Origin: Leptonemataceae bacterium
Lineage (GTDB): Bacteria; Spirochaetota; Leptospiria; Leptospirales; Leptonemataceae
Length of the DNA stretch: 64,000 bases
Assembly: GCA_965227295.1 (NCBI GenBank)
Contig: OZ245742.1
Span: 4,288,001-4,352,000, forward strand
Direction of reading: 5' to 3'
Position 1 is the first letter of the stretch. Each line of letters starts with the position of its first letter. The position numbers and the translations under genes are program-made. Below are positions 9,225-47,187 of this stretch, piece after piece. The notes under the pieces are model-generated. The model saw only the letters and a list, made by a program, of their open reading frames with translations. It was not told the origin of the DNA and did not search any database.

Positions 9225-9355
9225 GGGCGTCTCGGAAGGCGCCAGGCCCAGGCGCCTTCCGACCGCGCTACTCCGGGCTCCGCTATCGCTTCGGTCCTCC
9301 GCTTCGCTCCGGACTCGCGGCTTCGCCGCGACCCTGCGTATCGCTGACGCAAAGA
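9225..9355 (+). repeat. Structured intergenic element, copy A
   Basis: GGGCGTC-hairpin-CCGCGCT...ATCGCTGACGC-AAAGA; aligns by eye with the six other copies. Confidence 0.9.
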
Positions 9356-9402
9356 CCTGACTCCCGTCGCCACCCCCTCGGCACCTCGGTGGTATCCAAT
9401 CC

Positions 9403-10242
9403 TCAAGTCATAATCGAATCAAACATGAACGTCGGGATAATGCCGCTGCTCCGAATCTGCATGCGCGCTTTCTCTTTCAGCGTGTTCCCGGAGAGCACCA
9501 GCGCCGTATCGATGCCGAACTGATTCGCCCCCAGAATGTCCGTGTGCAACGTATCGCCCACCATGAGTATCTCGGACTTCTTAACATCCGGCAAAAGTTC
9601 CTTAGCGCGAGCAAAAGCGTACGAGAAAATCTGCGTATCCGGTTTGCCGAAGCGCACGAACGTACGACCCAGAATGCTTTCGATCATGGTGGCGAGACTG
9701 CCCACGGCCACCGCGATCCGCCGGGAGTTCACCGGATACGAGGCGTCCGTGTTGGCGACGATTACGGGCACGTTCACCTCACGCAAAATATTCAAGGTTT
9801 CGTTCAAATGCAAAAACCAATCAAAACCCTCGTCGTCCATGAAAGCGACGGCACCCAGACCGTGCGCGTCACTGACTTCGGCGATGGGCACCGCGGTGCA
9901 ACCGGCGGATTCAATGTAGTACGCCGACGGCGGCTGACCGAGATAGGCCACCACGCGCCGGTCCCGGGGAACCTTGGCCGCGAGAAACTGCGCGGCGAGC
10001 ATGCCCGACGAAACGATCTGCTCACGCGGTACCAGTTCGTTGTACGATTTCACCATGACGTCCGGCGACTTCGAGGCGTCGTTGGTGATGACGTAACTGC
10101 GCACGCCGTCGGCCGTGAGACCGGCGAGGACTTCCGGCACGCCGTCGATGATGCCCCGGGAGTTACGCAAAACGCCGTAGGCGTCGAAGAAAATCACCCG
10201 GTAATGGCGGGCCGCGGCGGCGAAGGATACATCCGTTTTCAT
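9403..10242 (-). CDS. HAD-superfamily subfamily IIA hydrolase (NagD-like)
   Basis: FDAYGVL, ITND, GKP, MVGDTLHTDILGA. Confidence 0.92.
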   Translation of the reverse strand: MKTDVSFAAAARHYRVIFFDAYGVLRNSRGIIDGVPEVLAGLTADGVRSYVITNDASKSPDVMVKSYNELVPREQIVSSGMLAAQFLAAKVPRDRRVVAYLGQPPSAYYIESAGCTAVPIAEVSDAHGLGAVAFMDDEGFDWFLHLNETLNILREVNVPVIVANTDASYPVNSRRIAVAVGSLATMIESILGRTFVRFGKPDTQIFSYAFARAKELLPDVKKSEILMVGDTLHTDILGANQFGIDTALVLSGNTLKEKARMQIRSSGIIPTFMFDSIMT

Positions 10243-10268
10243 AGCTTATGTAGTACGATTCTCCAGGC

Positions 10269-10532
10269 TTAACTCAGCCGATCGATGACGGCCGCAACGA
10301 TGGGTGCCAGGGCTCCGATGAAAAAAGCCAGGCGCGGCCGCGGTACGCCCCGGACCAAAAACTGCGCGGCGAGAGCATAGCCCAGGCCGGCGACGAAACC
10401 CAGGATCGCTCCTGTAACCGCGCCGAGAATCAGCGCGGGCATCATGCCGCCCGGGCCCCCGCCGGTGGCCAGCGCCGCCGGTCCGCCGGCGATCAGTCCG
10501 CCCAGAAATCCCATCCCGATGCATTTCAACAT
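10269..10532 (-). CDS. Small hydrophobic membrane protein
   Basis: 87 aa Gly/Ala-rich ORF with about 3 hydrophobic segments filling the intergenic gap. Confidence 0.55.
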   Translation of the reverse strand: MLKCIGMGFLGGLIAGGPAALATGGGPGGMMPALILGAVTGAILGFVAGLGYALAAQFLVRGVPRPRLAFFIGALAPIVAAVIDRLS

Positions 10533-10576
10533 GTGTTACTACCTATCCGCTTTCCCTGCGCCGCCACAATTTCGGG

Positions 10577-10608
10577 CTTGAGTCTCCCCCGGGGGAGACT
10601 TCAAGATT
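10577..10608 (+). promoter_or_regulatory. MerR-type promoter/operator
   Basis: TTGAGT (10578-83), 19 bp spacer, AAGATT; perfect 20-bp dyad AGTCTCCCCC/GGGGGAGACT at 10581-10600; upstream of an operon encoding a MerR regulator. Confidence 0.75.
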
Positions 10609-10613
10609 GCAAA

Positions 10614-11036
10614 ATGCAAAGCTCATCCATCTTCCAACCGATCACAAGAATAATTTTGTACGGCTTCCTGGTCTGGCTCGTCCCCTTCCTGGCGGCCATG
10701 GCCTTTTTCACTCCCGAGGGCGAACTGAGCATCGACATCTTCTTGTTCAAGACGATCATGCTCCTCATCTCGACGCCGCTCGGTCTCTTCCTCATGGCCG
10801 TGCATCTGCGGCGTTGTCCGGATCGTTATCTACAGCGCGGCCTCTTCGCAGGGATCGTGTGGATCCTGATCAACTGGGGCCTGGACTTCGCGATTCTGCT
10901 GCAATTGAGCGGGCAAAGCCCCGGCGAGTACTTCGTGCAAATCGGCCTGCGCTACTTCGCAATGATCTTTAGCGGCCTCTTCATGGGCTACGCGATAGAC
11001 GGCGTACTCACCGCGAAATCCACGCCGGAGCGCTGA
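10614..11036 (+). CDS. Four-TM membrane protein
   Basis: Hydrophobic ORF; ATG 10614 just after the MerR-type promoter; 2 bp from the merR gene. Confidence 0.7.
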   Translation: MQSSSIFQPITRIILYGFLVWLVPFLAAMAFFTPEGELSIDIFLFKTIMLLISTPLGLFLMAVHLRRCPDRYLQRGLFAGIVWILINWGLDFAILLQLSGQSPGEYFVQIGLRYFAMIFSGLFMGYAIDGVLTAKSTPER

Positions 11037-11038
11037 GC

Positions 11039-11839
11039 ATGTACAGCATCGGGCAGTTCTCGTTGATCACCCGCATCCCGGTGCGCACGCTGCGGCGTTA
11101 TCACGAGAACGCCGTCTTGATTCCGGATCACGTCGACGAAGACAGCGGCTATCGTTACTATCGCGAAGCCGCCGTCGAACGCGCGCGCTTGATCAGCGCG
11201 CTGCGGGATCTGGACTTTCCGTTAAAAGATATTCAGAATATCTTAGCAAGTTGCGCCGAGGATGAGGACATCCTGGATCACTTGCTGAAGCGCCGGGACG
11301 AACTTGAGTCAGAGCTGCGTGACATGCAACGCCGGCGGGGCGGCCTCGCAAACGCCATCGAGCACATTCGCCGATTGCAGAAGCTTCCCTCCGCGGACGC
11401 CGTGGAGCTGAAAGATGTGCCGGCCCTGTACTTCGCCGGCCTGCGCAGCACCGGTCGCTGGGACGAGATCGGCGCAAACTTCAACACCGTGGGACGCAAG
11501 GCCGGACGCTGGATCGGCGGACCGGCCATGTCGTTGTGCTATGACGGCGAGTACAAAGACGACGCCGACTACGAGGCCGGCTTTCCCCTGCGACGACCGA
11601 AGGAGATCAGCGGCCTGGACTGCCGCGAGCTTCCCGCGGTCCGTTGTGTTACGTTAATTCACCGCGGCCCGTACACCGAACTCGGGCGAAGTTACGAACG
11701 GCTGCTGGAGTTCATCAACGCGCGTAAGTTAAGCTGGGGACCACCTACGCGGGAGGTCTACTTAAAAGGCCCCGGCATGTTCTTTCGCGGCAACCCGAAG
11801 AAGTACGCAACGGAAATTCAGATACCGGTGCGGGAGTAG
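11039..11839 (+). CDS. MerR family regulator with GyrI-like effector domain (BmrR-like)
   Basis: YSIGQFS..RTLRRY..GYRYY HTH; HRGPY, P.REVYL, TEIQIPV. Confidence 0.93.
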   Translation: MYSIGQFSLITRIPVRTLRRYHENAVLIPDHVDEDSGYRYYREAAVERARLISALRDLDFPLKDIQNILASCAEDEDILDHLLKRRDELESELRDMQRRRGGLANAIEHIRRLQKLPSADAVELKDVPALYFAGLRSTGRWDEIGANFNTVGRKAGRWIGGPAMSLCYDGEYKDDADYEAGFPLRRPKEISGLDCRELPAVRCVTLIHRGPYTELGRSYERLLEFINARKLSWGPPTREVYLKGPGMFFRGNPKKYATEIQIPVRE

Positions 11840-11843
11840 CCCT

Positions 11844-13736: not shown

Positions 13737-13739
13737 GAG

Positions 13740-14945: not shown

Positions 14946-15001
14946 AAACAGGCAAATCCAATACGGTAACGCAAAGCGTTGCAAGCGAAAAGTGCACGCA
15001 T

Positions 15002-15030
15002 AAAAAAGGCGCGCCCGAGAGCGCGCCCTT
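15002..15030 (-). terminator. Rho-independent terminator after the lipase-like gene
   Basis: Minus strand GGGCGCGC-TCTCGG-GCGCGCC followed by T6. Confidence 0.7.
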
Positions 15031-15094
15031 TCTGAAAGGCAAAGGACGGTAAAAAACGAAACGGCGCCGCCGGAGTCCGACGGCGCGCGATGTT

Positions 15095-15808: not shown

Positions 15809-15986
15809 GAACGCTCTCCTGATGAACAAACAAACACCGGCGAATATATGTGTACCGGTGCCTGCGGACACTGACACCGTGTCGGCGGAGATTGCAAGCA
15901 TAATTTGGGCCCCGCATCAAAGCTCTGCACCAGAAGATCACGGGAAACGCTTGCAATGAACCCGGCCCCTGACGGTATATAATCAC

Positions 15987-16520
15987 ATGGGCCACACCCC
16001 CGGGAAAGGGGCAGCGCCGGTGACGATTGCCATGGCGGTCCTCCTCCTGACGGCTCAGTGTTCCGGCGGACGCTATGTAAATTCGCAGACCTGGTACGCG
16101 GGCATCTACGCGCCGACGGATCAAGCGGACTTTGAGGAACGGTATCGATGCGAAGCACCGCGACAGCATACCGTGTACTATTTCTTCTTCGGCACCACCA
16201 TGCTCCGACGGGAAGATCCGAAAACGCTCTTCCCGGAGCCGGATCGCTATGTCTACGCCTTCGAACAAAAGAAAACGACCATGGACTGGATCATATCCAT
16301 TCTCTTCGGTACGATGTTCAGCGTAACACGCAATACCCTGGAAATCCGGCAGTGCGTCGGCACCCGCGAGGCCGACCGCATCGATGCCCGCAAGCGCGTC
16401 GAGGAAGCGCAACGCCGGGCCCGGGAACGCGCCGAGGCCGCCCGCGAGGCGGCAGAACGCGCCGCGGAGAGGGCCCGGCGCAATCAGGATCAGGGCGGAT
16501 CACAGGAGCAAGGTCGTTGA
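15987..16520 (+). CDS. Putative lipoprotein (Bor/TRL-like)
   Basis: Lipobox-like LTAQC, YYFFFG..TMDWIISILFG, charged coiled-coil tail. Confidence 0.6.
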   Translation: MGHTPGKGAAPVTIAMAVLLLTAQCSGGRYVNSQTWYAGIYAPTDQADFEERYRCEAPRQHTVYYFFFGTTMLRREDPKTLFPEPDRYVYAFEQKKTTMDWIISILFGTMFSVTRNTLEIRQCVGTREADRIDARKRVEEAQRRARERAEAAREAAERAAERARRNQDQGGSQEQGR

Positions 16521-17146
16521 ACCGGCGCTGGATCCTGCCCATCCTGCTCTATTTCGCCGCAACAACGTTGCCGGCGCAGAGCGAGTTGCGCCCGGTCTGC
16601 CTGCACGGCGATTGCCGGGACGGCCAGGGGCGGCTTCAGATCCAGAGTTCGTCCGGCCAGGTACGCTACGACTACTCCGGTGAATTTCGAGACGGGGCGC
16701 CGAACGGGCCGGGCCGGCTCAGCCTCGTCACAGGGTTGCGCTACTCCGGCGACTTTCAGGACGGGCGCTTTCACGGCCGCGGCATCCTCGAGTACCCGGA
16801 CGGCAGTCGGTACGAGGGCGAGTTCCAGGCCGGGCGCATGCACGGTGCCGGACTGTTCGCGTTCGCCGGCGGCGCCGAGTACGTCGGCCAGTTTCAGAAC
16901 GATCGCTTTCACGGAGCCGGGGCCTACACCTTTGCCGACGGGGCTCGCTACACCGGCGAGTTCCAGAACGGTCGCTTCCACGGCTACGGTCGTTTCGAGG
17001 GCAGCGACGGTTCCCTCTATGAAGGTCGTTATCGCGACGGCAAAAAAGACGGCCCGGGCACCCTCGTCCTCCCGGACGGCGTGCGGCGTCAGGGCATATT
17101 CGCCGGCAATCGATTGGTCCGCCTTACCTCGGAGGACGACGCTTGA
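16517..17146 (+). CDS. MORN repeat exported protein
   Basis: Signal peptide, CLHGDCRDGQG, about 6 repeats of YxGxFxxGxxHGxG; TTG start with CAGGAG RBS. Confidence 0.9.
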   Translation: MNRRWILPILLYFAATTLPAQSELRPVCLHGDCRDGQGRLQIQSSSGQVRYDYSGEFRDGAPNGPGRLSLVTGLRYSGDFQDGRFHGRGILEYPDGSRYEGEFQAGRMHGAGLFAFAGGAEYVGQFQNDRFHGAGAYTFADGARYTGEFQNGRFHGYGRFEGSDGSLYEGRYRDGKKDGPGTLVLPDGVRRQGIFAGNRLVRLTSEDDA

Positions 17147-23857: not shown

Positions 23858-23929
23858 CATCCCGTAGGGGAATCGAACCCCTGTTGCTGGAATGAAAATC
23901 CAGAGTCCTAACCGCTAGACGAACGGGAC
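23858..23929 (-). tRNA. tRNA-Glu (TTC)
   Basis: Reverse complement GTCCCGT..CTGGA-TTTTCAT-TCCAG..GGTTCGATTCC..ACGGGATG folds as a cloverleaf. Confidence 0.96.
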
Positions 23930-24067: not shown

Positions 24068-24140
24068 TGAGGCGTCAGGGGCTCGAACCCTGGACCACTT
24101 CCTTAAAAGGGAAATGCTCTACCAACTGAGCTAACGCCTC
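24068..24140 (-). tRNA. tRNA-Lys (TTT)
   Basis: Reverse complement GAGGCGTTAGCTCAGTTGGTAGAGC..CTTTTAA..GGTTCGAGCCC..CGCCTCA. Confidence 0.96.
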
Positions 24141-24239
24141 GCATCAGCAATCCCGGCCACGTTATGTAGCGTGCGCAACGGGTCAACCGGAAAAGTGTTT
24201 CAGCTTGCCCTCAGAGCCCCCGCCCCGTACACGAACGCG

Positions 24240-24845
24240 ATGCTCAATTCGATCACCAACGCCATGCACGCCGCCGCGCTGATTACCTATACCACGCTGG
24301 TCTACTATTACATGCAGGCCGGTGACGAGCGCTATACGGTCTGGATCTTCCTCACGTTCCTCTTCGTCTCCATCCTGAAGTTCCTGGGAATCATCGTGCA
24401 TCTGCCCTGGGTCGATCTGCCGAACCGGGAACGCCACAACTTCGTGTGGATTCTGATTTCGATTGGCCTGGTCTTTCTGAATTATGCGACGCTGCGGGCG
24501 ATCCACATTCCGATGTGGGCGCTGATCCTGGGCATGCTCATCACGGTGCTCTTCTGCGGTCTCTACGTACATTCCCTGTTCGTAAGAACCGGGACGTTTT
24601 TCTTGATTGCGATTGCCCTCGCCTCGGTCTACACGCTCTGCGCAATCTTCACGCAGGGCCTGCTGCAAATCGCCTGGATCTGCATGATCCTCTCGCACGT
24701 ACTGTGGCTCGGCCTGGAACGCGTGCCGTGGTTGGAACAACGCAAGTTGCACAACGACATCTATCACCTGGCGTTGATTGCGAGTAGCTTCATTCTGTAC
24801 AAATCCATCGCCGAAGGTCTGTGGGCTGCGGGACCGGCGTGGTAA
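24240..24845 (+). CDS. Multi-TM membrane protein with conserved His residues
   Basis: About 7 hydrophobic segments, HNDIYH motif; start ATG 24240. Confidence 0.7.
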   Translation: MLNSITNAMHAAALITYTTLVYYYMQAGDERYTVWIFLTFLFVSILKFLGIIVHLPWVDLPNRERHNFVWILISIGLVFLNYATLRAIHIPMWALILGMLITVLFCGLYVHSLFVRTGTFFLIAIALASVYTLCAIFTQGLLQIAWICMILSHVLWLGLERVPWLEQRKLHNDIYHLALIASSFILYKSIAEGLWAAGPAW

Positions 24846-24864
24846 GATGAAGTAAGAATTTCTC

Positions 24865-24977
24865 GGGCGCCCCCGCCCCTCCGGGGCGGTCGGGCTGCTC
24901 CGGGCGTGAAAGTAGCGACGCGTCTTACGCGTCGTCGGGTGGGGAATCCGCTGGCGCGGATTCCATGCTTCGCTGCG
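24865..24977 (+). repeat. Structured intergenic element, copy B 5' half (interrupted by IS)
   Basis: GGGCGCCCCCGCCCC-TCC-GGGGCGGTCGGGCTGCTCCGGG, nearly identical to the 5' end of copy G. Confidence 0.85.
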
Positions 24978-26134
24978 GGGGCTGACCAAAAAGTGGCCTG
25001 CCAGAAGAGATAGGGCATTCATTTTATTGGGGGGAGCTCCGCTCCCCCTGGCTCCGACCCGCGTCGCTACGCGAACGCCCGGGCCTCGCCTTCGGCGACC
25101 GGCTCACCCTCCGGGCAAGCCTGGCCCGGGCTCGCGGTTCTCCGCCACCCCCTCGGTGTGCAGGCTCCGTTCGCAGCTCATTCTTTTAACATTATGGGCA
25201 AGATAGAACAACCCGGCGTCGGCTTGTGCGCCGGCAAGGCCCCGGGTTACATACCGGCGCCGCTTTTGATTGAATTTGCCGTCTCCGAAAACGGTTTCCA
25301 CAGCATGGCCCCGCACTCGTTGAAACTCACGACCCTGCGGGCTGTTAAGATTCTCTCGTGTGATGTTACGCAGCCTCTCCAGATTCGGACGCACGGTCAG
25401 CGTGCCGGAACTACCCGGCGTGCATTTCTGCCGTAACGGACACTGTATGCAATCCGGAGGCGCGCTGTACTCACGGCTGTGCTCCACATACCCCGTGCGA
25501 CTCAGACGACTCTTCGTTCGCTGAAAAGGCAAACGTCCCCCGGCCGGGCAGGTATAGACGTCACTGAATTCATCATACGAAAAACGGTTCAAGCGTACAC
25601 GTTCTTCATTCCATTTTGGAGATCTTTCACGAGATGATGCCGTCTTTCATGCGCATCGGCCGGGCGTCATGATCCGTGCGCGAACAGCCATTGCGATTTT
25701 GCAGGATTTCCCGCTGTTTTTCGTACTTTTCGCGCCGGCGTTCTAACTCACGCGTTCTGCGGAGTTTTTTTTAGTGTCTGCGAGCATCATGCGCGGATCA
25801 TGCGCGGATCATACGCACTCGTGCCGCCGCCGCGATAGGCAGTGTAGAGTTCACTGAGGTCCATCCTGTCAATCAACTCGCTGACAATCCGTGCCAGATG
25901 CCCCGGCTCCACGTAGTCTTCTGTACTCGGCGGGAAAAGATAACTCTCGTTTTGAACATACGGCTTGAACTTCTGCGCCCTGGGCTTCCGCGAGGCACCA
26001 CTCAATTCGGTCGTTTCAGGGAAAAGTTCGTCTGCGTGCGGATCTGACATGGGCAGAGCCTCAACCGGCCATCGCCCTTTTCCAGGAATTTTCGTTGTGT
26101 CAAGTCCGTATCCAGGACCTTTTTGGTCAGCCCC
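24978..26134 (-). mobile_element. IS1182-family element, internally deleted (1157 bp)
   Basis: Perfect 16-bp terminal inverted repeats GGGGCTGACCAAAAAG (24978-24993 / 26119-26134) enclosing transposase fragments. Confidence 0.88.
25104..26050 (-). pseudogene. IS1182 transposase pseudogene (N-terminal fragment 25787-26050, C-terminal fragment 25104-~25631)
   Basis: FKPY.Q...LFPPS..DY...HLAR...AYDPRM (N-term); YTCPAG..C..CPLRQKC..VETVFG..K..AHN (C-term); central DDE region missing. Confidence 0.88.
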
Positions 26135-26169
26135 TGGCTTCGCCACCCTGCGCATCCCTGGCGCGAAGA
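26135..26169 (+). repeat. Structured intergenic element, copy B 3' half
   Basis: TGGCTTCGCCA-CCCTGCGCATCCCTGGCGC-GAAGA directly after the IS TIR; matches the 3' end of copy G. Confidence 0.88.
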
Positions 26170-26210
26170 GACGAGCAATATCATCCGCCCACCGACTCTC
26201 CCGATCTTCC

Positions 26211-29278: not shown

Positions 29279-30295
29279 ATGCGCATTTCGATCCGCCACC
29301 TCCCGGCCGTAGCTCTGATCGCCCTCTTCGGCCTCACGGCCTGCGGCGAGCCGGGTCCCAGTGTGGTCATCAACGGCAAAACCTACACCGAATCCGATCT
29401 CAAAAGCCAGAGCCCGTCTCGCTACGAATCCATCCGCGACGAGTACAACAAAAACATCTACGGCGCGCTCCAGCAAATGGGCACCCAGAAACTCTTCGAG
29501 CTGGAAGCCGAAGAAAAAGGACAGAGCATTGACGAGTACATGGGTACTCTCCGCAGCCAGGCGAAGCCGCCCTCCGAGCAGGAACTCCTCGAAACCTACA
29601 ACGATCTCAAAGCCACCGGCCAGATCAGCACGGAAAGCTACCCGGAAGTCCGTGACCGCATTGCTCAGTTTTTGATGGGGCAGCAGTCCCAGGAAATAAT
29701 GGGCCGTGAGGTGAGCCGCCTGAAAGAAAAATACGGCTACAGGGCCAGCATGGGCCCGGTGCAACGCAAAGAGGTCGCCATCGAAGACGACCCGTACCGT
29801 CTCCAGGAAAAAGGCAAGGTCACGATCATCGAATTCTCGGACTTCGAGTGCCCGTTCTGCACGCGCGTCCAGGCCACGGCCTCGCGCCTGCGCGAAAAGT
29901 ACGGCGATCAGATGACCTGGGTGGTCAAAGACTTCCCGCTCTCCTTTCACGAAAATGCCATGCAGGCCCACGTCGCGGCGAACTGCGTGCTCGCCCAGGA
30001 CAAAGAGAAGTACTGGGCCTTCTTCGACGGTCTCTTCGCCGAAGACCGCCCGGCGGACTACCTGGCGCCGGAAGAACTGAACTCTCTGGCCGCGCGCGTC
30101 GGTGCCGACATGAAGGATTACAGCATCTGCATGTCGAATCCGGACGTAATGCGCGCGGAGATCGAGAAGGACATCGCCCAGGGCGAGGCGGTGGGTGTGC
30201 GCGGAACGCCGGCCTTCTTCATCAACGGCCGCTTCGTTTCCGGCGCGTTGCCGTACGAAGATTTCGAGTCCATCATCGAAGAAGAACTGAATTAG
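29279..30295 (+). CDS. DsbA/thioredoxin-family lipoprotein
   Basis: Lipobox LTAC, FSDFECPFC, GTPAFFING. Confidence 0.9.
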   Translation: MRISIRHLPAVALIALFGLTACGEPGPSVVINGKTYTESDLKSQSPSRYESIRDEYNKNIYGALQQMGTQKLFELEAEEKGQSIDEYMGTLRSQAKPPSEQELLETYNDLKATGQISTESYPEVRDRIAQFLMGQQSQEIMGREVSRLKEKYGYRASMGPVQRKEVAIEDDPYRLQEKGKVTIIEFSDFECPFCTRVQATASRLREKYGDQMTWVVKDFPLSFHENAMQAHVAANCVLAQDKEKYWAFFDGLFAEDRPADYLAPEELNSLAARVGADMKDYSICMSNPDVMRAEIEKDIAQGEAVGVRGTPAFFINGRFVSGALPYEDFESIIEEELN

Positions 30296-30300: not shown

Positions 30301-30355
30301 TCCCCACCCCCGGGGAGACGCGCGGGTGCGCATAAAGCGTCCCCCGGGGTGGGGA
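30301..30355. repeat. Long GC-rich inverted repeat between the DsbA paralogs
   Basis: TCCCCACCCCCGGGGAGACGC...GCGTCCCCCGGGGTGGGGA. Confidence 0.7.
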
Positions 30356-30420
30356 CGTCGCCCGCGTGGGGGGACCGGGTAGTTCCTGATGGCCGCTCCA
30401 GTCCCGAGGATCTCTTTATC

Positions 30421-31443
30421 GTGTCATATCGTACTTTCTTAATTGTGGCTTTTCTTTTGTTAGTCACCGGGGTTCCTGCTCAGGATTCGCAGGAGGAGCC
30501 GTTTGTTGAGGTCGACGGCAAACGTTATACCGGGGCGGACCTGAAGGATTCGCCGGAGTTCGCGGCTTTGCAGCAGCACTATCGCGAACAGCTGACCGAG
30601 CTGCTGAAGTCCTTCGGCCGCGAGAAGCTGTTTGAACGCGAGGCCCGGGCTCAGAACATTTCGGTAGAATCTTACAAAGAAAAGTTACGTAAGAAAGCGG
30701 GAGAACCTTCCGAGGAGGAAATTCGCGAGGCCTATGATCGTCTGCAAGCCGCGGGACGGTTTGAGGACGGCCAGAGCTTCGAGGATCTGCGCGACTCCGT
30801 GGCGAACTATCTGCGCGCGCTTAAGTTCAGCGAGGTGATGGACGCCGAGCGTCGTCGACTGGAAAAGAAGTACGGCTTCAAATCCCACAGCGGGCCGGTG
30901 GTGCGCCACGACGTGCCCGTCGACAATGAACCGGTGCGGCCCGGCGCACGCAAAAACGCGGAGATCACCATCGTGGAATTCGCCGACTTCGAGTGCCCGT
31001 TTTGCCGCCGCGTACAGGACACCAGCCGACGCCTGCGCGAGCGCTACGGCGATCGCATCCGCTGGATCGTCAAAGACTTCCCGCTCTCGTTTCACGCAAA
31101 CGCCATGCCGGCTCACGTTGCCGCGAATTGCGTGGGTCGACAGAGTGCTTCGGCTTACTTTCAGTTCTTTGACGGTTTGTACCGACACGATCAGCCCGAG
31201 GACTATCTGTCCGCCGCGAATCTGCGCAGGCTCGCCGGTAAGTCAGGGGCGGACCTGGCAAAGTTCGATGAATGCGTCAAAGATGCCGATGCGATCATAG
31301 CGGAGATCGAAGAGGACATTGATCAGGGCCAGGCAATCGGGGTGCAGGGCACGCCTTCGTTTTTTATTAACGGTCGGTTGATTGCCGGGGCACAGGACTA
31401 CGAGGCGTTTGTGGGTGTGATTGAAGAAGAACTGAGGCGCTGA
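30421..31443 (+). CDS. DsbA/thioredoxin-family exported protein (paralog)
   Basis: Sec signal from GTG 30421, FADFECPFC, KDFPLSFH, GTPSFFING. Confidence 0.88.
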   Translation: MSYRTFLIVAFLLLVTGVPAQDSQEEPFVEVDGKRYTGADLKDSPEFAALQQHYREQLTELLKSFGREKLFEREARAQNISVESYKEKLRKKAGEPSEEEIREAYDRLQAAGRFEDGQSFEDLRDSVANYLRALKFSEVMDAERRRLEKKYGFKSHSGPVVRHDVPVDNEPVRPGARKNAEITIVEFADFECPFCRRVQDTSRRLRERYGDRIRWIVKDFPLSFHANAMPAHVAANCVGRQSASAYFQFFDGLYRHDQPEDYLSAANLRRLAGKSGADLAKFDECVKDADAIIAEIEEDIDQGQAIGVQGTPSFFINGRLIAGAQDYEAFVGVIEEELRR

Positions 31444-36096: not shown

Positions 36097-36122
36097 GGAT
36101 GATCGCCTGTCCTGCGCGGTCG

Positions 36123-36157
36123 AAAAAAAACGGCGCGCCCGAAATCGGAACGCGCCG
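36123..36157 (-). terminator. Rho-independent terminator of mdh
   Basis: Minus strand CGGCGCG-TTCCGATTTCGGG-CGCGCCG followed by T8. Confidence 0.8.
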
Positions 36158-36189
36158 CCTTTCATCAGCTAACTTATGCCGGCCGAATC

Positions 36190-37212
<1,023 letters not shown>

Positions 37213-37242
37213 TCAAGTCACTTATAGGGGGAAAATACGCTT

Positions 37243-37347
37243 TCTTCGCGCCAGGGTGGTCGCGAAGCGAGTCTTTGCGCAGCAAAGACCGAAGCCGAAG
37301 GCGGAGCCCTGGAAAGCCCGGTCGACGCCGAAGGCGGCGAGGCGCCC
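37243..37347 (-). repeat. Structured intergenic element, copy C
   Basis: Reverse complement GGGCGCC-hairpin-CCGGGCTTTCCAGGGCTCCGCC...CCCTGGCGC-GAAGA. Confidence 0.85.
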
Positions 37348-37437
37348 TGAAAAAATCTCCGGTGACAACACGCGGCTTAGCTTAACTTAAGTTGATATTT
37401 ACCGGGGCGACCCGCCCGCCCGGCAGAGTGGAATTGG

Positions 37438-38981: not shown

Positions 38982-38994
38982 ACAGATTTCTTAA

Positions 38995-39105
38995 CTCTTG
39001 CGCCAGGGATTGAAGCGATGGCCGAAGGCCAGTCTCACCGCAGGTGAGACCGAAGCGATAGCGGAGTCGCGCAAAGCCCGGTCGCCGCGTAGCGGCGAGG
39101 CGCCC
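38995..39105 (-). repeat. Structured intergenic element, copy D
   Basis: Reverse complement GGGCGCC-hairpin-CCGGGCT..CGA-CTCCGCTATCGC...TCG..ATCCCTGGCGC-AAGAG. Confidence 0.9.
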
Positions 39106-39147
39106 AAACAAATCTTCCTGAATCTTATCTTAACCGCCTCTTTATTT

Positions 39148-39358
39148 GGGCGCCCCCGCCACGGGTCCGCTCTCGGCATCCATGCCTCCGCGGACACTTC
39201 CAACGTCTTGTTGGTCGCCTGGCGGTCGGGCTACTCCGCACTCCGCTATCGGCCAGTGGGGAACATCTACCGCGGCCACGACAAGCGTGGCCTTGCTGGT
39301 CCTCCGCTTCGCTCCGGACTGGCGCTTCGCGCCATGCTACGTATCCCTGGCGCGAAGA
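39148..39358 (+). repeat. Structured intergenic element, copy E (expanded)
   Basis: Same termini and core motifs, with extra hairpins inserted in two arms. Confidence 0.88.
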
Positions 39359-39384
39359 TTTAAGAGACGCACTCAGCAAATCTT

Positions 39385-40488: not shown

Positions 40489-40504
40489 GTTCTAAACCTT
40501 TTCC

Positions 40505-40618
40505 ACTCCGAGGACCGAGGTACCGAGGTAAAAAAGAAAACTGAAAGCTCCCATAACCTGAACGCTTTCCCATCACGCACGCCCTCCCCGAAAACCTCGA
40601 ACTCTCGGTCCTCGGAGT
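40505..40618. repeat. MITE-like element bounded by 15-bp perfect inverted repeats
   Basis: ACTCCGAGGACCGAG (40505-19) and CTCGGTCCTCGGAGT (40604-18). Confidence 0.7.
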
Positions 40619-40622
40619 CCAT

Positions 40623-41753
40623 TCATCTTCCCTCAAGCACCTCACGATACACGGCCATCGTATCCCTTACGGTCGCCTCTTTGCTGAACTTCTTCACGCG
40701 CTCTCGATTCAAGTTACCGAACTTCGCACGCAAACCCGCATCCGTCAACAAGCGCGCCATGTTTTCCGCGAGCGCGCCCGGATCCTCCGCCGGACTCAAA
40801 AGCCCGCCCTCGCCGTCCACGATCATTTCCGGGATACCGCCGGCCGCCGTCGCCGCCACCGGCAGGCCGTAGCCCATGGCGTCCAAAACCGCCGTGCCCA
40901 GGCCCTCTTCGTTCGACGACATCACAAAAACATCGAAGAGACCGTAGAGATCGTCCACGTCGTTGCGATAGCCTGTGAATGTTAGAAAACCGCCCTCGAG
41001 CAAACCCGCGGCGTCGGCCTGGACCTCCAGGCTTTCGCGTAACTTACCTTCACCTGCAATTAAGACGTGGAACGCGGGGAGCTGATCTTTGCGGCGCGCG
41101 AGTTCCGCCGTGGCCGCGACCAGGGTCTTCTGATCCTTATGCCCCACCAGCATGGCCACGTTGCCGAAGACGATCGTCTCATCCGCCAGGCCCAACTCCG
41201 CGCGCAGACGCCCGATGGCCGTCGCATCATGCTTTTTCTCAAAACGTTCGAGGTCGATGCCCGAATACGCAATGCGGATGCGCTCTTCCGGAATGCCGTC
41301 CAGCATGAGGATGCGCTTCACGTTCTCGGAGATGGCGATGTACATCGCCACGTGCGGGCTCAGATACTTGCGCCGGGAAAGAAAGTTCGTGCCGGCCGGG
41401 AAATCCACGCGCCGCGAAACGATGAGTTTCGTTTTGGGCAGACCGCGCACCGCCATGAGGCCCAGGCCGTGGGCGCGCGAAGTATGGGCGTGCACGAGGT
41501 TCGCCCCGAACTCCCGCGCGATGTTCCGAATGCGTCGCGCGGCCAGGAGGTCCCACTCGCCGCCCATGCGTACAGCACGGAACGGCAGACCGGCCTCTTC
41601 ACAACGCGCCTGGAGTTCCGAGTCCGGCCGGCCGACGACGAGCTGCTGAATTTCGGGGCCGACGTCGCGCAAACCTTGCGCCAGAAATAAAACCTGGCGT
41701 TCGCCGCCGCGCCAGGTCTTCGCCGTATTCAAATGCAGGACGCGCGGATTCAT
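40623..41753 (-). CDS. Glycosyltransferase family 4
   Basis: WRGGERQ, HAH, SNEEGLGTAVLDAM, GGIPE. Confidence 0.92.
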   Translation of the reverse strand: MNPRVLHLNTAKTWRGGERQVLFLAQGLRDVGPEIQQLVVGRPDSELQARCEEAGLPFRAVRMGGEWDLLAARRIRNIAREFGANLVHAHTSRAHGLGLMAVRGLPKTKLIVSRRVDFPAGTNFLSRRKYLSPHVAMYIAISENVKRILMLDGIPEERIRIAYSGIDLERFEKKHDATAIGRLRAELGLADETIVFGNVAMLVGHKDQKTLVAATAELARRKDQLPAFHVLIAGEGKLRESLEVQADAAGLLEGGFLTFTGYRNDVDDLYGLFDVFVMSSNEEGLGTAVLDAMGYGLPVAATAAGGIPEMIVDGEGGLLSPAEDPGALAENMARLLTDAGLRAKFGNLNRERVKKFSKEATVRDTMAVYREVLEGR

Positions 41754-41773
41754 GAACGTGCGCCCTTAGCAGA

Positions 41774-42790: not shown

Positions 42791-42829
42791 TCGTTCACAT
42801 TTTCGCGCCGCTATCTCAGGGCAACCAAA

Positions 42830-44899
42830 ATGACCGACACCGGATCTCCGGTCAGACACGCATGCAAACAGCTTCTGGACTGGACTCTACGCTGCTGGAT
42901 CGTGCTTCTGGCGCACCGGCTCCTCTTCACCCTGGCCTACCTGCCGGCAAACACCGATCTCGTCACCCTCGCGGAGCAGTTTTGCCTGGGTTTTTGGTTT
43001 GATTTCTCCACGCTTCCGGTGCTACTTTTACCAATAGCGCTGTTTCTTCCACTATACAGCGCCGGCTGGCCGCTGACGAACCGCCTTGTGCGGGCATTCG
43101 AACTGGCCCAGTGGATCTATCTCGGCGTATGCAACGTCGTTCTGGCCGCGAGCACATACAATTTCGCCTTCAACGGCAAACACCTCGGATGGGAGCTTTT
43201 TGCCTATCTGAACGATCTATCCACGTTGATCGGCGGGGTCGCGGAGCGCTCCCCGCTGCTCCTGCCCCTGGCCGTGCTCATCGCGCTCGGATTCGCGGCA
43301 GGGGGGTGGCTCCTGCTCCGCCGCTCGCCCGCCCCGGTTTACTCACAGGAAACTCGCACGTTTTCCCTGCCCCTGCGGATTTTTGCTATCTTTCTGTCCC
43401 AGGTATGCATCATGGGCATTATGTCCCTCGCGATCCGCGGAGGATTCCAGGACACTCCGCTCCGCTCGCCCGACGCCATTCGGTACGGGACGGCGTATCT
43501 AAACAACGTGCCGCTGAACGGTCTGTTCACCGTCAGCCGGGACGCCGAGGATCGCTCCGACTTCGTAAGATTCTACGACCCCGCGGAGAACGTGGCCGCC
43601 GTGCGCACGCTCCTGGACCCGCGACCGAACGCCTTCCTTTCGGACGAGTATCCCCTGCTCCGCCGCATGCCCCCGCGTCGCCTCGCCGGCGAACGCAAGG
43701 CACCGAACATCGTCCTGGTCATCCTGGAATCGTTCACGGCGAAGTACCTGGCCACCCACGGCGGCGATCCGCGCATTGCACCGAACTTCGAGCGGCTCTC
43801 GCGCGACGGGCTCTACTTCGAGCGCTTCATGGCCTCGGGCGGGCGCAGCGCCAACGGCCTCTTCTGCATGTTCGCCGGCCTGCCGGACCGCGCCAATCGT
43901 ACCATCCTGCGCAGCAACGAGGCGCAGAATCGCATGGGCGGGCTCGCGCGCATCTTACGCGACAACCACGAGTACCGAACGATCTTCGTGCACGGCGGGG
44001 ACCTGCGCTTCGACAGCCTGGACCGCATGCTGCCGCACCTGGGATTCGAAACGGCCGTGGGCTGGCGCGAAATGGAGGCAGATCGCGCGGGCCTGGGACT
44101 GAACGAAGACGACCGGCGCACGAGCTGGGGTTTCTTGGATCACGTGAGCTTCCGCGTCGCGGAAACGTTGATCGACGACGCGGCGAAACGGGACGACGGG
44201 CGGCCGTTTTTCGCGACGGTCTTTACGCTAAATACACATCATCCGTACTTAGTGCCGAACGGCGACGAGCGTATCTTCGATGCCGCGCAGCCCCAGCACG
44301 ATTTTCTGAACTCGTACCACGCCACGGACAAAGCGCTCGGCGCATTTCTCGACAAACTGCGTACGAAATCATATTACAACAATACGATCTTCGTCTTCAC
44401 GGCGGACCACGCGCATCATGCGCAGTTGAACTACCTCGAAGATCGACACATTCCGCTCCTGATCTACGCGCCGGGCCGCAACGATGCGCGCTTGCGCGGG
44501 CGACGCACGGACCTGGCGAGTCAACTGGATCTGCTGCCGACGATCTTCGGCCTCGCCGGCGGCGACGGCGTATACGCGGCCATGGGTCGCGACCTGCTGC
44601 ACGAAGACACCCCGTCACCGCACGCCTACTATGCCGGCGGTTCCGGTACCGGGGCCATCGGCTGGATTCAGGGCGAGCTCATGCTGATGCAGTGGATCGG
44701 CGCGGAGAATCGCATTTTACTTACGGCACGCCACCCGGCCGACGTCAGCGATTTGTTTCCGGAGCATCCGGACATCGGCGCGGCCTTCGTGGAACGCAGT
44801 CGCCACTTCCACCAGTTCGCACGTTATCTCGAACAAAACAATCGCATCTGGCCCCCCGCTTCCACCGGGGAATCCGATCTGCAAACGACACAACCTTGA
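42830..44899 (+). CDS. LTA synthase/sulfatase family membrane protein
   Basis: TMs, IRGG, NIVLVILES, SGGRS, THHPY, TADH; ATG 42830 (the longer ORF is antisense to pfkB). Confidence 0.87.
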   Translation: MTDTGSPVRHACKQLLDWTLRCWIVLLAHRLLFTLAYLPANTDLVTLAEQFCLGFWFDFSTLPVLLLPIALFLPLYSAGWPLTNRLVRAFELAQWIYLGVCNVVLAASTYNFAFNGKHLGWELFAYLNDLSTLIGGVAERSPLLLPLAVLIALGFAAGGWLLLRRSPAPVYSQETRTFSLPLRIFAIFLSQVCIMGIMSLAIRGGFQDTPLRSPDAIRYGTAYLNNVPLNGLFTVSRDAEDRSDFVRFYDPAENVAAVRTLLDPRPNAFLSDEYPLLRRMPPRRLAGERKAPNIVLVILESFTAKYLATHGGDPRIAPNFERLSRDGLYFERFMASGGRSANGLFCMFAGLPDRANRTILRSNEAQNRMGGLARILRDNHEYRTIFVHGGDLRFDSLDRMLPHLGFETAVGWREMEADRAGLGLNEDDRRTSWGFLDHVSFRVAETLIDDAAKRDDGRPFFATVFTLNTHHPYLVPNGDERIFDAAQPQHDFLNSYHATDKALGAFLDKLRTKSYYNNTIFVFTADHAHHAQLNYLEDRHIPLLIYAPGRNDARLRGRRTDLASQLDLLPTIFGLAGGDGVYAAMGRDLLHEDTPSPHAYYAGGSGTGAIGWIQGELMLMQWIGAENRILLTARHPADVSDLFPEHPDIGAAFVERSRHFHQFARYLEQNNRIWPPASTGESDLQTTQP

Positions 44900-44916
44900 C
44901 GGGAGTCCCATAACGT

Positions 44917-46158
44917 ATGGAAACACACATCCTGGGAAAATATAAAACGTACAAACACAACGACGATCGCGACGCGGGCCGGGAAATTGCACATTACATG
45001 TACCACGAGTTGGGCCGCTGGCTGGAACAGGGCAAACCCGACGAGAAGTTCCTCCAGGCGTTCAACGAGTTTTTTACGAAGACCGAGGAATACCAGTTTT
45101 CGAGCCAGGACTTGATCGACCTCGGCCTCATGCATACGGCGGAGGCGGTATCGAGCTACCAGCCGAAGGACGATCCGGAACAACAGATTACGAAGTTTTA
45201 CTTAAACGAGGCGCGGTTGCCGTTCTTCGCGAGCATCGACGATGAAGCCTATCGCATGCTGAAAAACTTCGAGTTTTCGGAGATCGACTTTCAGATTTAC
45301 GAAATCATCGGCGGCGATTTTCCCCACGACGCGGCGCAGAACTTTTTGATGCACAACGAGTGGGTGGATATCTGGATCGCCCTGCGTTACCTGGACACGA
45401 TGCCCGACGCGCACTTCGACCTGGAACTCATCGAACGCATGATGGCCGGCCGTGACAGCATACACGAAAAGTTGATTTTGCTGGGTTATCTCTGCGTGGT
45501 GGACCTGGACTTGATCGAAGAGTCCCTCGACGAAAACATCGGCCGCAGCCGCTTTAACTTTCCGTCCCGGATTACCCGGCCCATGCTCGCCGCGATTCAC
45601 AAGATGATTCGCGATCACGTGCACGACGGCGAGCTGGACGTCCACTGGGAACAGGACCTGGATCCGCAGTTCCTCCACGAGACGGTGTTCGTATTGCTCG
45701 TGTACTTCGAGATCACGCATGCTTCGCTGTTGCCGGGCTGGATTCGCCTGCTTGAGTCGGGCATGCTCTCGACCTGGACGACGAAGTCCGTCGAGGACGG
45801 CCACGAAATCGTTTACCAGCCCATCGCCGAATTTACCGGGAGCATCCTGTCGCTCTTAACCGAAGAAGACCTGCACTTTCTTCTGGAGACGTCGTTGATT
45901 CTGCCGTCATTCTTTGAGAGCTTGCCGAACTACAACCCCGAGGCGTTCCAGAACTTTCTGCTCGCCTTCGTGCGCGAAGATCAGTTATTGCTGGCCGAAC
46001 TGGAGCTGGCATTGCCGACGGACGCCGAAACCTATCGCGATCGCGGGGACGATCTCGGCCCGGCACGCTGGAGCGCCTGCGCCGGCGCCGTGGGTTTTCA
46101 GATCATCCTCGATAACGAGGGCCGGCCGAAGCTCATGCCGGCCGGGGGGCACAACTGA
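44917..46158 (+). CDS. Hypothetical acidic protein
   Basis: 413 aa ORF with GGGAG RBS and coding-like codon usage; no motif recognised. Confidence 0.75.
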   Translation: METHILGKYKTYKHNDDRDAGREIAHYMYHELGRWLEQGKPDEKFLQAFNEFFTKTEEYQFSSQDLIDLGLMHTAEAVSSYQPKDDPEQQITKFYLNEARLPFFASIDDEAYRMLKNFEFSEIDFQIYEIIGGDFPHDAAQNFLMHNEWVDIWIALRYLDTMPDAHFDLELIERMMAGRDSIHEKLILLGYLCVVDLDLIEESLDENIGRSRFNFPSRITRPMLAAIHKMIRDHVHDGELDVHWEQDLDPQFLHETVFVLLVYFEITHASLLPGWIRLLESGMLSTWTTKSVEDGHEIVYQPIAEFTGSILSLLTEEDLHFLLETSLILPSFFESLPNYNPEAFQNFLLAFVREDQLLLAELELALPTDAETYRDRGDDLGPARWSACAGAVGFQIILDNEGRPKLMPAGGHN

Positions 46159-46163
46159 GCGAC

Positions 46164-46619
46164 GTGTCCCGCGGCCCCGGCGATGCGGCACCAGGCCAGC
46201 CCGGTGTCTTTCAGATTACGCTGAAGGTTTTTTTGCGACGGGGCGACGAGTTCCTGGTGCTCCGGGACGCGAAGGCCGGCGTCGGCGACCTGCCCGGCGG
46301 GCGGCTGAATCCCGGCGAGATCTACGAGCCGTGGGTAGATTCCGTTCGACGTGAGTTAAGCGAGGAACTGGGCGACGGTTTCGAGTTCGAGATCGCAAAC
46401 GGCGGCGAACCGATTTTTATTTTTCCGCATTTTATTCAGGAAAGCGGATACGAGGGCCTGGGCATCGCGTATCTGGCGGAATTCCTGGGCGGCGAGGTGC
46501 GGCTTTCGGATGAGCATGATGATATGCGGTGGGTGTCCGTGAAGGAGTGGGATGCGTCGGAGATGTTCGTGACGCATTTGCTCGGGGCAGTGCAGCGGTT
46601 TCAGCGGGAGTTCGATTGA
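46164..46619 (+). CDS. NUDIX hydrolase
   Basis: PGGRLNPGE......RRELSEELG Nudix box, SDEH. Confidence 0.88.
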   Translation: MSRGPGDAAPGQPGVFQITLKVFLRRGDEFLVLRDAKAGVGDLPGGRLNPGEIYEPWVDSVRRELSEELGDGFEFEIANGGEPIFIFPHFIQESGYEGLGIAYLAEFLGGEVRLSDEHDDMRWVSVKEWDASEMFVTHLLGAVQRFQREFD

Positions 46620-46904
46620 AGTACGGGAAACGATGTTGTATGGTCGCCGGCCTGCTGCTGGCCGGCAAGAGCGCCGGAAAAATACCGACGTCGATGTCCA
46701 GACGCTGCTGGATCAAATCGACCAACGCCGGCAAACGTCCTGAAACGCAAGATGTGGCTGTACCACTACGACACGGAGCCGGTCTACGAAGACGGCGAGT
46801 TCGGCGGCACGTTACGCGTCGAGGAACATCAGCGCATCGCTCCGAATGACTTAAGGCGATCGGAGAGTAGCGCAAACGGAACAAGGCCGCGTCGTGAATC
46901 ACAA

Positions 46905-47024
46905 CTCTTGCGTCAGCGATTGGAAGGGTGGCCGAAGGCCAGTCTCGCGCAGCGAGACCGGAGCGAAGCGGAGCCCTGGAAAGCGCGGTGCCCGGCGGCT
47001 TCCGACGCCGCCGGGCAGACGCCC
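46905..47024 (-). repeat. Structured intergenic element, copy F
   Basis: Reverse complement GGGCGTC-hairpin-CCGCGCTTTCCAGGG...CCCTTCCAATCGCTGACGC-AAGAG. Confidence 0.9.
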
Positions 47025-47069
47025 ATCATCCCAATTAAGATTTTCCAGATGAATCTTAAGAATTAATTT

Positions 47070-47187
47070 GGGCGCCCCCGCCCCTGTGGGGCGGTCGGGC
47101 TGCTCCGGGCTCCGCTTCGCTTCGGTCCTCCGCCTTCGGCTCCGGACTCGCGCTAACGCGCGACCCTGCGCATCCCTGGCGCAAAGA
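47070..47187 (+). repeat. Structured intergenic element, copy G
   Basis: GGGCGCC-hairpin-TCGGGCTGCTCCGGG...CCCTGCGCATCCCTGGCGC-AAAGA. Confidence 0.9.

Follow-up and report, generated by a model that had tools for sequence, protein, structure and literature searches.

A stretch of 64,000 nucleotides (nt) from a Leptonemataceae bacterium (Spirochaetota; assembly GCA_965227295.1, contig OZ245742.1, positions 4,288,001 to 4,352,000 of the forward strand), here called the window, carries seven copies of an intergenic repeated element whose conserved ends pair with each other around a branched, variable core. The element is present in about 200 copies in this genome, occurs partly as inverted doublets, is found in several phyla and is related to the Rfam motif Flavo-1 (RF01705). 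We read it, at a probability of about one half, as mobile DNA that is non-autonomous, has spread horizontally, needs to fold as a single strand in order to propagate and would be moved by an enzyme acting in trans. The family behaves like repetitive extragenic palindromic (REP) sequences, REP doublets forming hairpins (REPINs) or MITEs (miniature transposable elements with inverted repeats), but has a larger, branched fold.

Structure and ends of the element

The unit, 105-130 nt long, begins at GGGCG and ends at CGC, after which GAAGA usually follows. Its 5' half consists of a T-rich tract, GGGCGYN (the 5' strand of helix P1), hairpin P2 and C-C-G-S-G-C-T (P3). There follow an N5 segment whose first two bases form P4, the triplet XYZ (P5), CT-CCGC-loop-GC (P6) and T-N-C-G-G. 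The 3' half comprises hairpin P7, hairpin P8 abutting P7, Z'Y'X', a second N5, A-T-C-S-C-T (P3'), N'RCGC (P1') and, usually, GAAGA. The conserved ends pair via helices P1, P3, P4 and P5, which enclose the 5' hairpin P2 and the variable core; in this genome the core holds three hairpins (P6, P7 and P8) joined by the conserved CTCCGC ... GCTNCGG. In the modelled fold, P5 closes a four-way junction with P7 and P8 side by side, and P1 joins both ends. With eight helices in 105-130 nt, the element is indeed more complex than a REP palindrome, as an earlier note on this DNA had stated.

The ends are well defined. Near-identical copies at unlinked loci (93-98.5% identity) have in common the sequence from -1/0 of GGGCG to 5-6 nt past CGC. 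Upstream positions -6 to -1 are 62-89% T, and the element lies mostly directly 3' of a T-rich tract; because this tract varies between near-identical copies, it behaves as flank or as a target preference. A TAAnAT-like box is found at -12 to -7 upstream of elements in this genome. A promoter reading of the T-rich leader was dropped, given that phyla with other promoter types conserve the T-run as well. On one strand the T-run comes before the structure, and on the other an A-run comes after it; neither strand has a hairpin and then a U-run, and an intrinsic (Rho-independent) terminator was rejected on these grounds. A tRNA-like reading was also considered and dropped.

Conservation of the fold

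The earlier note had proposed, from the seven copies of the window, four covarying long-range pairings, and that selection acts on a single strand folded in such a way that the two ends meet. Both proposals are supported genome-wide by alignment A1, a MAFFT alignment of the best 76 full-length copies among 211 matches (five from the window and 71 of the 73 other full-length matches, leaving out two copies with large insertions). A hand-drawn structure of 37 pairs was tested on A1, which was not fitted to that structure: 88.6% of 2,700 cells pair, a share that falls to 35.4-46.1% once the 3' partners are displaced by 1-3 columns. Double-change cells number 292; shuffles give 87.3, with none of the 500 attaining the real figure, and the displaced versions give 14-52. 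RNAalifold finds the long-range helices on its own (17 pairs, 10 of them with compensatory changes).

Each of the four pairings exists in several forms. For the terminal helix, columns 28/180 are CG (58) or UA (15), and columns 30/179 are CG (42), GC (18) or AU (5). The second helix is represented by columns 76/176 (GC 55, CG 18) and the third by columns 80/172 (UA 37, GC 21, AU 9, CG 3), while the fourth includes columns 85/167 (GC 67, AU 5, CG 2) and 97/165 (GC 69, AU 6). Pairs 81/171 and 83/169 hold in one subfamily only, and 83/169 was removed from the model.

As the copies of a single genome are kin, shuffle tests overstate significance, and the partner specificity of the covariation was therefore examined. 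When 2,211 pairs of variable columns are ordered by mutual information with average product correction (MI-APC), ranks 1-3 are all predicted pairs (P8 147/163, P4 80/172 and P1 30/179). The long-range pairs take ranks 2, 3, 10, 28, 34 and 36, and the remaining high-scoring pairs are neighbouring columns within one module. Alignment A3 extends the comparison to 48 copies from 13 genomes, picked by the covariance model rather than by pattern; fitting this alignment to the model flatters pairing, and 95.5% of its cells pair vs 41.5-47.8% when slid. Changes on both sides are seen in 35 of its 36 pairs, and further pair types appear among its copies in P1, P3, P5 and P6. The multibranch fold is strongly supported by these data.

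Exchange of modules between copies

The earlier note had remarked that copy A combines the termini of copy F with the interior of copies G and E. Such reassortment is a general property of the family: when six modules were typed in 75 copies (leaving out copy F, the 5' end of which is misaligned by MAFFT), 62 distinct combinations were found. The P1 type is close to random with respect to the P4, P7 and P8 types and shows partial linkage to the P3 type. Despite the shuffling, both strands of P1, which lie approximately 110 nt from each other, are matched almost perfectly. Because modules are shuffled so heavily, this match cannot be inherited linkage; it is maintained by either selection or a copying process. 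The family is an unusually clean natural case in which shuffled modules with matched long-range partners allow selection on the fold to be separated from shared ancestry.

Copy number and genomic context

The genome is a single 5.94-Mb contig with a 59.8% G+C content. Two rounds of nhmmer gave 211 matches in it, and covariance model R1 matched 150 of the 150 candidates scored, i.e. at least 150 copies; what had been described as a seven-copy family thus has about 200 members, far more than chance would allow. The matches, 112 on the plus and 99 on the minus strand, are dispersed along the entire chromosome. Gene context was taken from our own crude gene caller (4,906 calls, 88.7% coding). The family is intergenic, with only 9 of the 211 matches overlapping a gene by more than 30 nt. 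Co-directional genes flank 124 matches, convergent genes 52 and divergent genes 35, compared to a background of 66%, 17% and 17%, respectively.

Inverted pairs, 36 in number, account for 71 copies. Head-to-head pairs (21) are 27-78 nt apart, with exact ends located, and tail-to-tail pairs (15) are mostly approximately 14 nt apart. There is no true direct tandem among the 211 matches, the one apparent case being a split copy. The tail-to-tail spacer of 13-15 nt is a semi-conserved palindrome (TTGTGAWTCACAA type; e.g. the doublets at 921788, 4972891 and 5334028) that resembles a protein-binding site, and in some tail-to-tail doublets one partner is without the GAAGA tail. At 2279490-2292900 and 4962815-4965777 there are paralogous gene arrays with an element copy after each gene, one of these genes having pretoxin-HINT and DUF6973 domains; here the element has been duplicated together with the adjoining gene.

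Occurrence in other genomes

R1 matches were found in 23 of 31 genomes of the same order, its own genome counted. A second family in the order is that of Leptospira (an OmpL1 porin gene adjoins one copy), in which 12 of 12 genomes have 3-51 matches each. Two genomes of the same genus have two matches each among 110 scored candidates, vs at least 150 copies here. A strict pattern scan of 185,579 species genomes gave at least 106 loci, the first 100 of which were scored by R1: 43 are matches (40 over the full model and 3 clipped by a contig end) and 57 are chance matches. The record labels of the matching loci are Spirochaetales, Treponema, Leptospira, Chitinophaga, Flavobacterium, Sediminibacterium, Hymenobacter, Sphingobacteriaceae and Saprospiraceae, as well as Polyangia, Myxococcota, Deltaproteobacteria, Planctomycetales and a Hydrocarboniphaga-labelled genome.

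Whole-genome counts, from 150 scored candidates each, are at least 147 in a Spirochaetales genome, at least 74, 40 and 39 in genomes labelled Chitinophaga, Flavobacterium and Hydrocarboniphaga, respectively, and 2 in Hymenobacter gummosus. In an even sample of other Bacteroidota, 4 of 100 genomes match at E <= 1e-6. The family spans Spirochaetota (including Leptospira), Bacteroidota, Myxococcota and other lineages. A plasmid collection gave one 35-nt partial match only, and none of nine pattern matches in viral contigs was confirmed by R1.

Filled and empty sites, the comparison of which was suggested in the earlier note, were seen in Leptospira. One orthologous intergenic site by the serine hydroxymethyltransferase gene carries the element in four genomes and lacks it in two; this region is variable, such that exact junctions are unreadable. 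The four orthologues differ in P2 by compensatory changes. In the same genus as the bacterium studied here no empty site was readable: relatives are only approximately 69% identical and synteny is broken at copy A. The Leptospira intergenic region (loci L198-L203) also holds several copies of a different short repeat of the GTGGGAACTCC / GTAGGAACTAC type, a motif that appears in a paper on Leptospira interrogans transcription start sites (PMC5243855) as part of an intergenic repeated element.

Relationship to Flavo-1

The covariance model proposed in the earlier note could be built from copies of the family and found matches in the genome and its relatives; the accompanying comparison with Rfam gave no element match in the window at the gathering threshold. 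RF01705 itself, with a gathering threshold of 42 bits, has no match at E <= 1 on 14 copies of the long form, of which 3 belong to this genome and 11 to others, and matches none of 150 scored candidates in the whole genome. The sole sub-threshold Rfam match is to Flavo-1 (32 bits), adjoining a copy at one locus.

RF01705 was searched for in five genomes. Three element-bearing Bacteroidota genomes have at least 92, 78 and 36 matches, and a Leptospira genome has seven, the best of which (40.6 bits) is under the 42-bit threshold. Flavo-1 matches often lie 2-30 nt 3' of an R1 copy with the same strand label, and they also form inverted pairs. With filters off, R1 was run on five Flavo-1 instances above threshold and matched all five over the full model, on the opposite strand; scores are 18.3-26.9 bits, with E from 3.7e-5 to 3.8e-3 in 18.5 kb. 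In this alignment P1, P2, P3 and P4 are in common, and in place of 56 central positions of the model Flavo-1 has a 42-nt hairpin.

Flavo-1 shares with the element the opposite-strand scaffold GCGCC, xGGAU, N5 ... N5, AGCCx, hairpin, GGCGCCC and A-run, as well as high copy number and inverted doublets. The helices ccG/Cgg, Uu/aA and Gc/gC and the joints GAU, GGA and AG of the Flavo-1 model correspond to the outer part of the element. The two differ in the centre, where Flavo-1 has a single hairpin and the element here a three-hairpin junction with CTCCGC ... GCTNCGG, and the Rfam model is without an annotated terminal helix P1 and P2 hairpin. As judged from these alignments, Flavo-1 is probably a short form of the family, described on the other strand.

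Flavo-1 is given by Weinberg et al. (2010, PMC2864571) as a candidate non-coding RNA with a range in Bacteroidetes. Among results reported for Flavobacterium psychrophilum (PMC9723704), Flavo-1 matches are sense or antisense to transcribed regions, and many are untranscribed. The novelty envisaged in the earlier note is reduced by this kinship, the element probably being the opposite-strand long form of Flavo-1, although no copy of this genome scores against Rfam. Flavo-1 has reportedly been found in Spirochaetes too. The 11-mers ATCCCTGGCGC and GCGCCAGGGAT were absent from the searched literature, no account of the long form was found in work on Leptospira repeats, MITEs or cross-phylum repeats, and such a family was not mentioned in the Leptospira papers examined on small RNAs and transcription start sites (main texts, in each case). 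An orphan Rfam motif is now tied to an element that is larger, branched and similar to mobile DNA in its behaviour, and Flavo-1 is best studied as a repeat family, on both strands.

Folded strand and orientation

In RNA families, G·U is expected far above A·C if a single RNA strand is selected. Here, G·T and A·C cells number 10 and 21 of 2,552 in A1, and 27 and 21 of 1,228 in alignment A2; one-side changes (G·U intermediates) amount to 5 cells in A1 and 11 in A3. The pairing looks DNA-like, with good Watson-Crick complementarity on both strands. For 74 of 76 copies, folding predictions favour the strand opposite to that used above, which is the Flavo-1 strand, as the more stable one (mean margin of 4.3 kcal/mol with RNA parameters; the same strand is favoured with DNA parameters). 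Both ends are paired in the minimum-energy fold of 47 of 76 copies under RNA parameters and of 50 of 76 under DNA parameters.

Orientation is biased with respect to transcription: 81 singletons lie between co-directional genes, 26 sense and 55 antisense in the orientation used above (p = 0.0017), such that the Flavo-1 strand is more often the mRNA-sense strand. This bias holds for genes on either replication strand, and none of the readings considered below accounts for it. With a replication frame set by GC skew (origin near 1.18 Mb, terminus near 4.09 Mb), no replication-strand bias was seen, the forward strand being leading in 63 of 140 singletons.

Group II introns and other mobile DNA

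No partner enzyme is encoded in the window, in agreement with the earlier note: the only transposase remnant there is a fragment of the IS1182 insertion sequence (IS) family inside copy B, which is unrelated and is no partner of the element. The genome has one IS110-type gene and 10 reverse transcriptase (RT) genes of at least five families (e.g. 40883-41494 and 765390-766001; one family has four copies). The one RT copy examined has RVT_1, GIIM and HNH domains, and the several near-identical RT copies indicate active group II introns. Two 98.6%-identical copies of one such intron family, at 2020482-2022484 and 2367717-2369727, lie inside two different copies of the element. Both are inserted at the same point, GGG^CG of the 5' GGGCG (on the intron strand ...GGAACG^CCCAAAA, 6 nt past the P2 hairpin). 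The element is a homing target for that intron family, which is reminiscent of hairpin-seeking introns.

The earlier note had raised an RT gene flanked by the element as a possible partner. RT genes are present and one intron family does touch the element, but only as a target, and the other RT families do not touch it at all. A search for Y2 transposases (PF04986) gave no matches, and the control genomes were silent too, so that it is uninformative. For genome annotation it matters that the element breaks short-read assemblies and acts as a landing pad for ISs and a group II intron.

Interpretation

As mobile DNA, the element would be selfish and non-autonomous, spreading within genomes and, rarely, between phyla. 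One strand would fold so that the ends meet at the base of P1, where a trans-acting enzyme other than a REP-associated tyrosine transposase (RAYT) would act. Copies with mismatched helices would not be propagated, which would keep helix partners complementary despite the recombination that shuffles modules. Mobility is favoured by the patchy occurrence, by the contrast between at least 150 copies here and 2 matches in each of the two same-genus genomes, and by the Leptospira site at which the element is present or absent. It is likewise favoured by near-identical copies at unlinked loci with defined ends, and by the combination of conserved ends with an exchangeable core. The spread over phyla, with no known mobilising enzyme found, is a concrete lead to an undescribed mobilisation mechanism. 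The proposal of the earlier note that the element is a non-autonomous mobile or recombination substrate is still the best reading of the data, but no RAYT/Y1 or TnpB gene, no target duplication and no autonomous copy was found.

Several observations weigh against mobility. No element-flanked HUH/RAYT gene, as suggested in the earlier note, was found, since PF01797 (Y1/RAYT) has no match in this genome; there is none in Leptospira genome G024 either, and where Y1 genes are present (G043-G046) no R1 match lies within 1.5 kb. PF07282 (TnpB) is also without a match in this genome. Neither a split-hit search nor inspection of the genes between two copies revealed an autonomous copy: genes flanked by two copies are of housekeeping type (e.g. 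flagellin, thiolase and epimerase), and those adjoining copies in low-copy relatives are unrelated housekeeping genes. There is no copy-specific target duplication, the left and right flanks of a copy being no more alike than permuted pairs beyond the shared consensus (best z = 3.0 among 45 tests; 8 of 12 matches reached by 2 of 125 copies). Strain-level insertion polymorphism was not seen, contigs of two DNA runs giving only assembly breaks at repeats. The selection of the best full-length copies for A1 favours intact folds. The 26:55 orientation bias suggests an interaction with transcription that a mobile-DNA model does not predict, and the CTCCGC and GCTNCGG joints, conserved across phyla, are less reminiscent of the ends of a transposon than of a functional RNA or of a structure bound by protein.

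The last two points sustain the main rival, a structured RNA: the element would be either a small RNA or a cis-acting part of untranslated regions, where it could stabilise, be a site of processing or bind a protein, with its copy number secondary. Eight helices with conserved joints common to several phyla, and an orientation bias linked to transcription and not to replication, speak for such an RNA; the Flavo-1 strand is both the more often mRNA-sense and the more stable one (74 of 76), and one copy has been kept at an orthologous site in four Leptospira genomes with compensatory P2 changes. The related Flavo-1 was itself proposed as a non-coding RNA (PMC2864571). In contrast, G·U is almost absent and no commoner than A·C, with only 5 one-side-changed cells in A1, one third of the co-directional singletons point the other way, and divergent genes flank 35 of the 211 copies. 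An exchangeable core with conserved ends, the missing terminator and an approximately 100-fold difference in copy number inside one genus also fit an RNA function poorly, as do the many Flavo-1 matches reported as untranscribed in F. psychrophilum (PMC9723704), and we regard this rival as unlikely on balance. A DNA-level structural site of the host, as proposed for bacterial interspersed mosaic elements (BIMEs), would be a cruciform or a site for a nucleoid protein, gyrase or recombination protein. Strict Watson-Crick pairing that is equal on both strands, intergenic copies in both orientations and regularly spaced inverted doublets resembling BIME organisation all suit this idea, which is nevertheless improbable: a needed function would not vary from 0 to more than 150 copies among relatives or occur patchily over phyla, there is no replication-strand or positional pattern, and a simple cruciform needs no branched structure with conserved single-stranded joints.

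Less probable again is an element resembling a short interspersed nuclear element (SINE), in which RNA of the Flavo-1 strand, with an A-run at its end, is copied back by a resident RT. We know of no precedent for a bacterial retroelement of that kind. The opposite strand does end in ...GGCGCCC and then an A-run, and RT genes are available both here (10, several in identical group II intron copies) and in four of the five other element-bearing genomes tested. Yet target-site duplications are lacking, the T/A-run differs among near-identical copies and so is flank rather than tail, the Chitinophaga-labelled genome with at least 74 copies shows no RT (its completeness being uncertain), and the sole intron family touching the element uses it as a target. 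It is very improbable, finally, that the covariation reflects subfamily ancestry or correction of palindromes by template switching, with the fold as a whole not under selection. Copies within one genome are related by descent, which inflates shuffle tests, and quasipalindrome correction can generate compensatory changes in short hairpins. Against this, partners 90-150 columns apart are matched although modules are near linkage equilibrium, structure pairs occupy the first three of 2,211 MI-APC ranks, and covariation of these helices is seen independently, and with added pair types, in other genera and phyla.

Returning to mobile DNA, a broader and rather unlikely version of it may be put forward tentatively. 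The long form and Flavo-1 could together be one cross-phylum superfamily of self-propagating structured elements, whose conserved, mutually pairing ends would be the substrate of a novel single-strand DNA (or RNA) mobilisation machinery. Such machinery would be neither RAYT nor TnpA/TnpB nor a DDE transposase. Alternatively, the conserved junction could itself be catalytic. If true, either version would explain what the motif described in 2010 as Flavo-1 is.

Comparison with known systems

Like REPs, REPINs and BIMEs, the element is GC-rich, intergenic and high-copy, occurs as singletons and inverted dimers but almost never as direct dimers, and is a target of IS insertion. REP and REPIN elements are reportedly treated by Bertels and Rainey (2011). 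A REP consists of one hairpin of 20-40 bp that carries a GTAG or CGTC tag, whereas the element here has no such tag; only some P2 hairpins start with CGTC. In CGTC-tagged REPs the first pairs of the stem are A/T and a CCA tail stands at its end, neither of which is seen in the element, and in contrast to the REPIN/RAYT system no RAYT gene is flanked by it. CGTC-tagged REPs are described in five phyla, including Bacteroidetes and Spirochaetes, without a dedicated transposase (Di Nocera et al. 2013, PMC3733652). They are the closest published precedent for a cross-phylum repeat without its own transposase.

Derivatives of IS200/IS605 (palindrome-associated transposable elements, PATEs; 'peel and paste') are similar in having no target duplication, a sequence preference directly 5' of the left end (T-rich here) and structured ends that would work as a folded single strand. 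The present family differs in that there is no Y1 transposase (also none in Leptospira G024) and no TnpB, the ends pair mutually rather than as two separate subterminal hairpins, and there is no lagging-strand bias. The attC sites of integrons are also imperfect palindromes (approximately 60-140 nt) that act as a folded single strand, with paired conserved ends and a variable, sometimes branched centre; they, too, are targets of hairpin-seeking group II introns. Unlike attC, which occurs in same-orientation arrays by cassettes and intI with RYYYAAC/GTTRRRY core sites, the element is dispersed in both orientations, ends in GGGCG / CGC and has no attC core by inspection (intI was not searched for).

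MITEs (Correia/NEMIS; enterobacterial repetitive intergenic consensus, ERIC) are likewise small, non-coding, intergenic, high-copy and foldable. The ends of the element differ from these in having only approximately 5 bp of inverted identity (GCGCC), and both a target duplication and a parent IS with matching ends are absent. In a MITE census (PMC11602168), MITE-like repeats are recorded as unusually abundant in Leptospirales, where genomes have 154 on average, and MITE clusters as mostly genus-specific, whereas the family here spans phyla.

Copies and other features of the window

The seven copies proposed in the earlier note are all present at the coordinates in Table 1, as judged from the sequence and from R1 run over the window. 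The six intact copies score 77.6-118.3 bits, including copy E, which was outside the training set of the model. There is no further convincing copy in the window, the next R1 match scoring 15.1 bits (E 0.07). A repeat scan of the window already joins the copies (families D3, D7, D10, D16, D18, D20, I2, I6 and I14).

Table 1. Copies of the element and associated features in the window.
Feature	Position	Strand	R1 score (span)	Description
Copy A	9225..9355	+	105.7 bits (9215-9360, +)	Intact long form, GGGCGTC ... GACGCAAAGA; between convergent genes (crude gene calls)
Copy B, 5' part	24865..24977	+	30.0 bits (24855-24967)	Normal outer scaffold (P1, P2, P3, N5), then alternative core
Decayed IS1182-family insertion sequence inside copy B	24978..26134	-		1,157 bp, broken transposase frames
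Copy B, 3' part	26135..26169	+	10.9 bits (26085-26174)	TGGCTTCGCCA CCC TGCGC ATCCCTGGCGCGAAGA
Copy C	37243..37347	-	80.9 bits (37238-37357, -)	7-nt deletion in the 3' N5 segment
Copy D	38995..39105	-	112.5 bits (38991-39115, -)	Left partner of a head-to-head doublet
D-E head-to-head spacer	39106..39147	.		42 nt, AT-rich
Copy E	39148..39358	+	77.6 bits, full model (39138-39363, +)	Expanded, 211 nt; extra sequence in the P2 hairpin and the P6/P7 region
Copy F	46905..47024	-	87.8 bits (46901-47034, -)	Left partner of a head-to-head doublet
F-G head-to-head spacer	47025..47069	.		45 nt, AT-rich, partly palindromic (TTAAGATT ... AATCTTAA)
Copy G	47070..47187	+	118.3 bits (47060-47192, +)	Intact long-form element

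The differing middle of copy B, noticed earlier, is accounted for by a core unlike that of the other copies, between the scaffold and the IS, plus the decayed IS itself. The latter has 16-nt terminal inverted repeats (GGGGCTGACCAAAAAG) and a match to Pfam PF13751 (DDE_Tnp_1_6, E 2.4e-22) on 25104-25646(-), and is too short for a full transposase. The short 3' deletion noted in copy C is real, and is also found in one other genomic copy (L057); it is therefore a variant rather than a private lesion.

Two tRNA genes (23858-23929 and 24068-24140, minus strand; Rfam RF00005, 59.5 and 70.8 bits) lie approximately 700 nt upstream of copy B and are separated from it by one gene (24171-24845). At 16673-16983, inside the called gene 16517-17146 (+), a 69-nt unit is repeated five times in tandem; judged from the DNA, this is an apparent 23-residue protein repeat with a Y-x-G-x-F ... 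G-x-x-H-G pattern. A 182-nt direct repeat with 77% identity (29808-29989 and 30953-31134) falls in the adjacent called genes 29279-30295 and 30349-31443, which are probably tandem paralogues.

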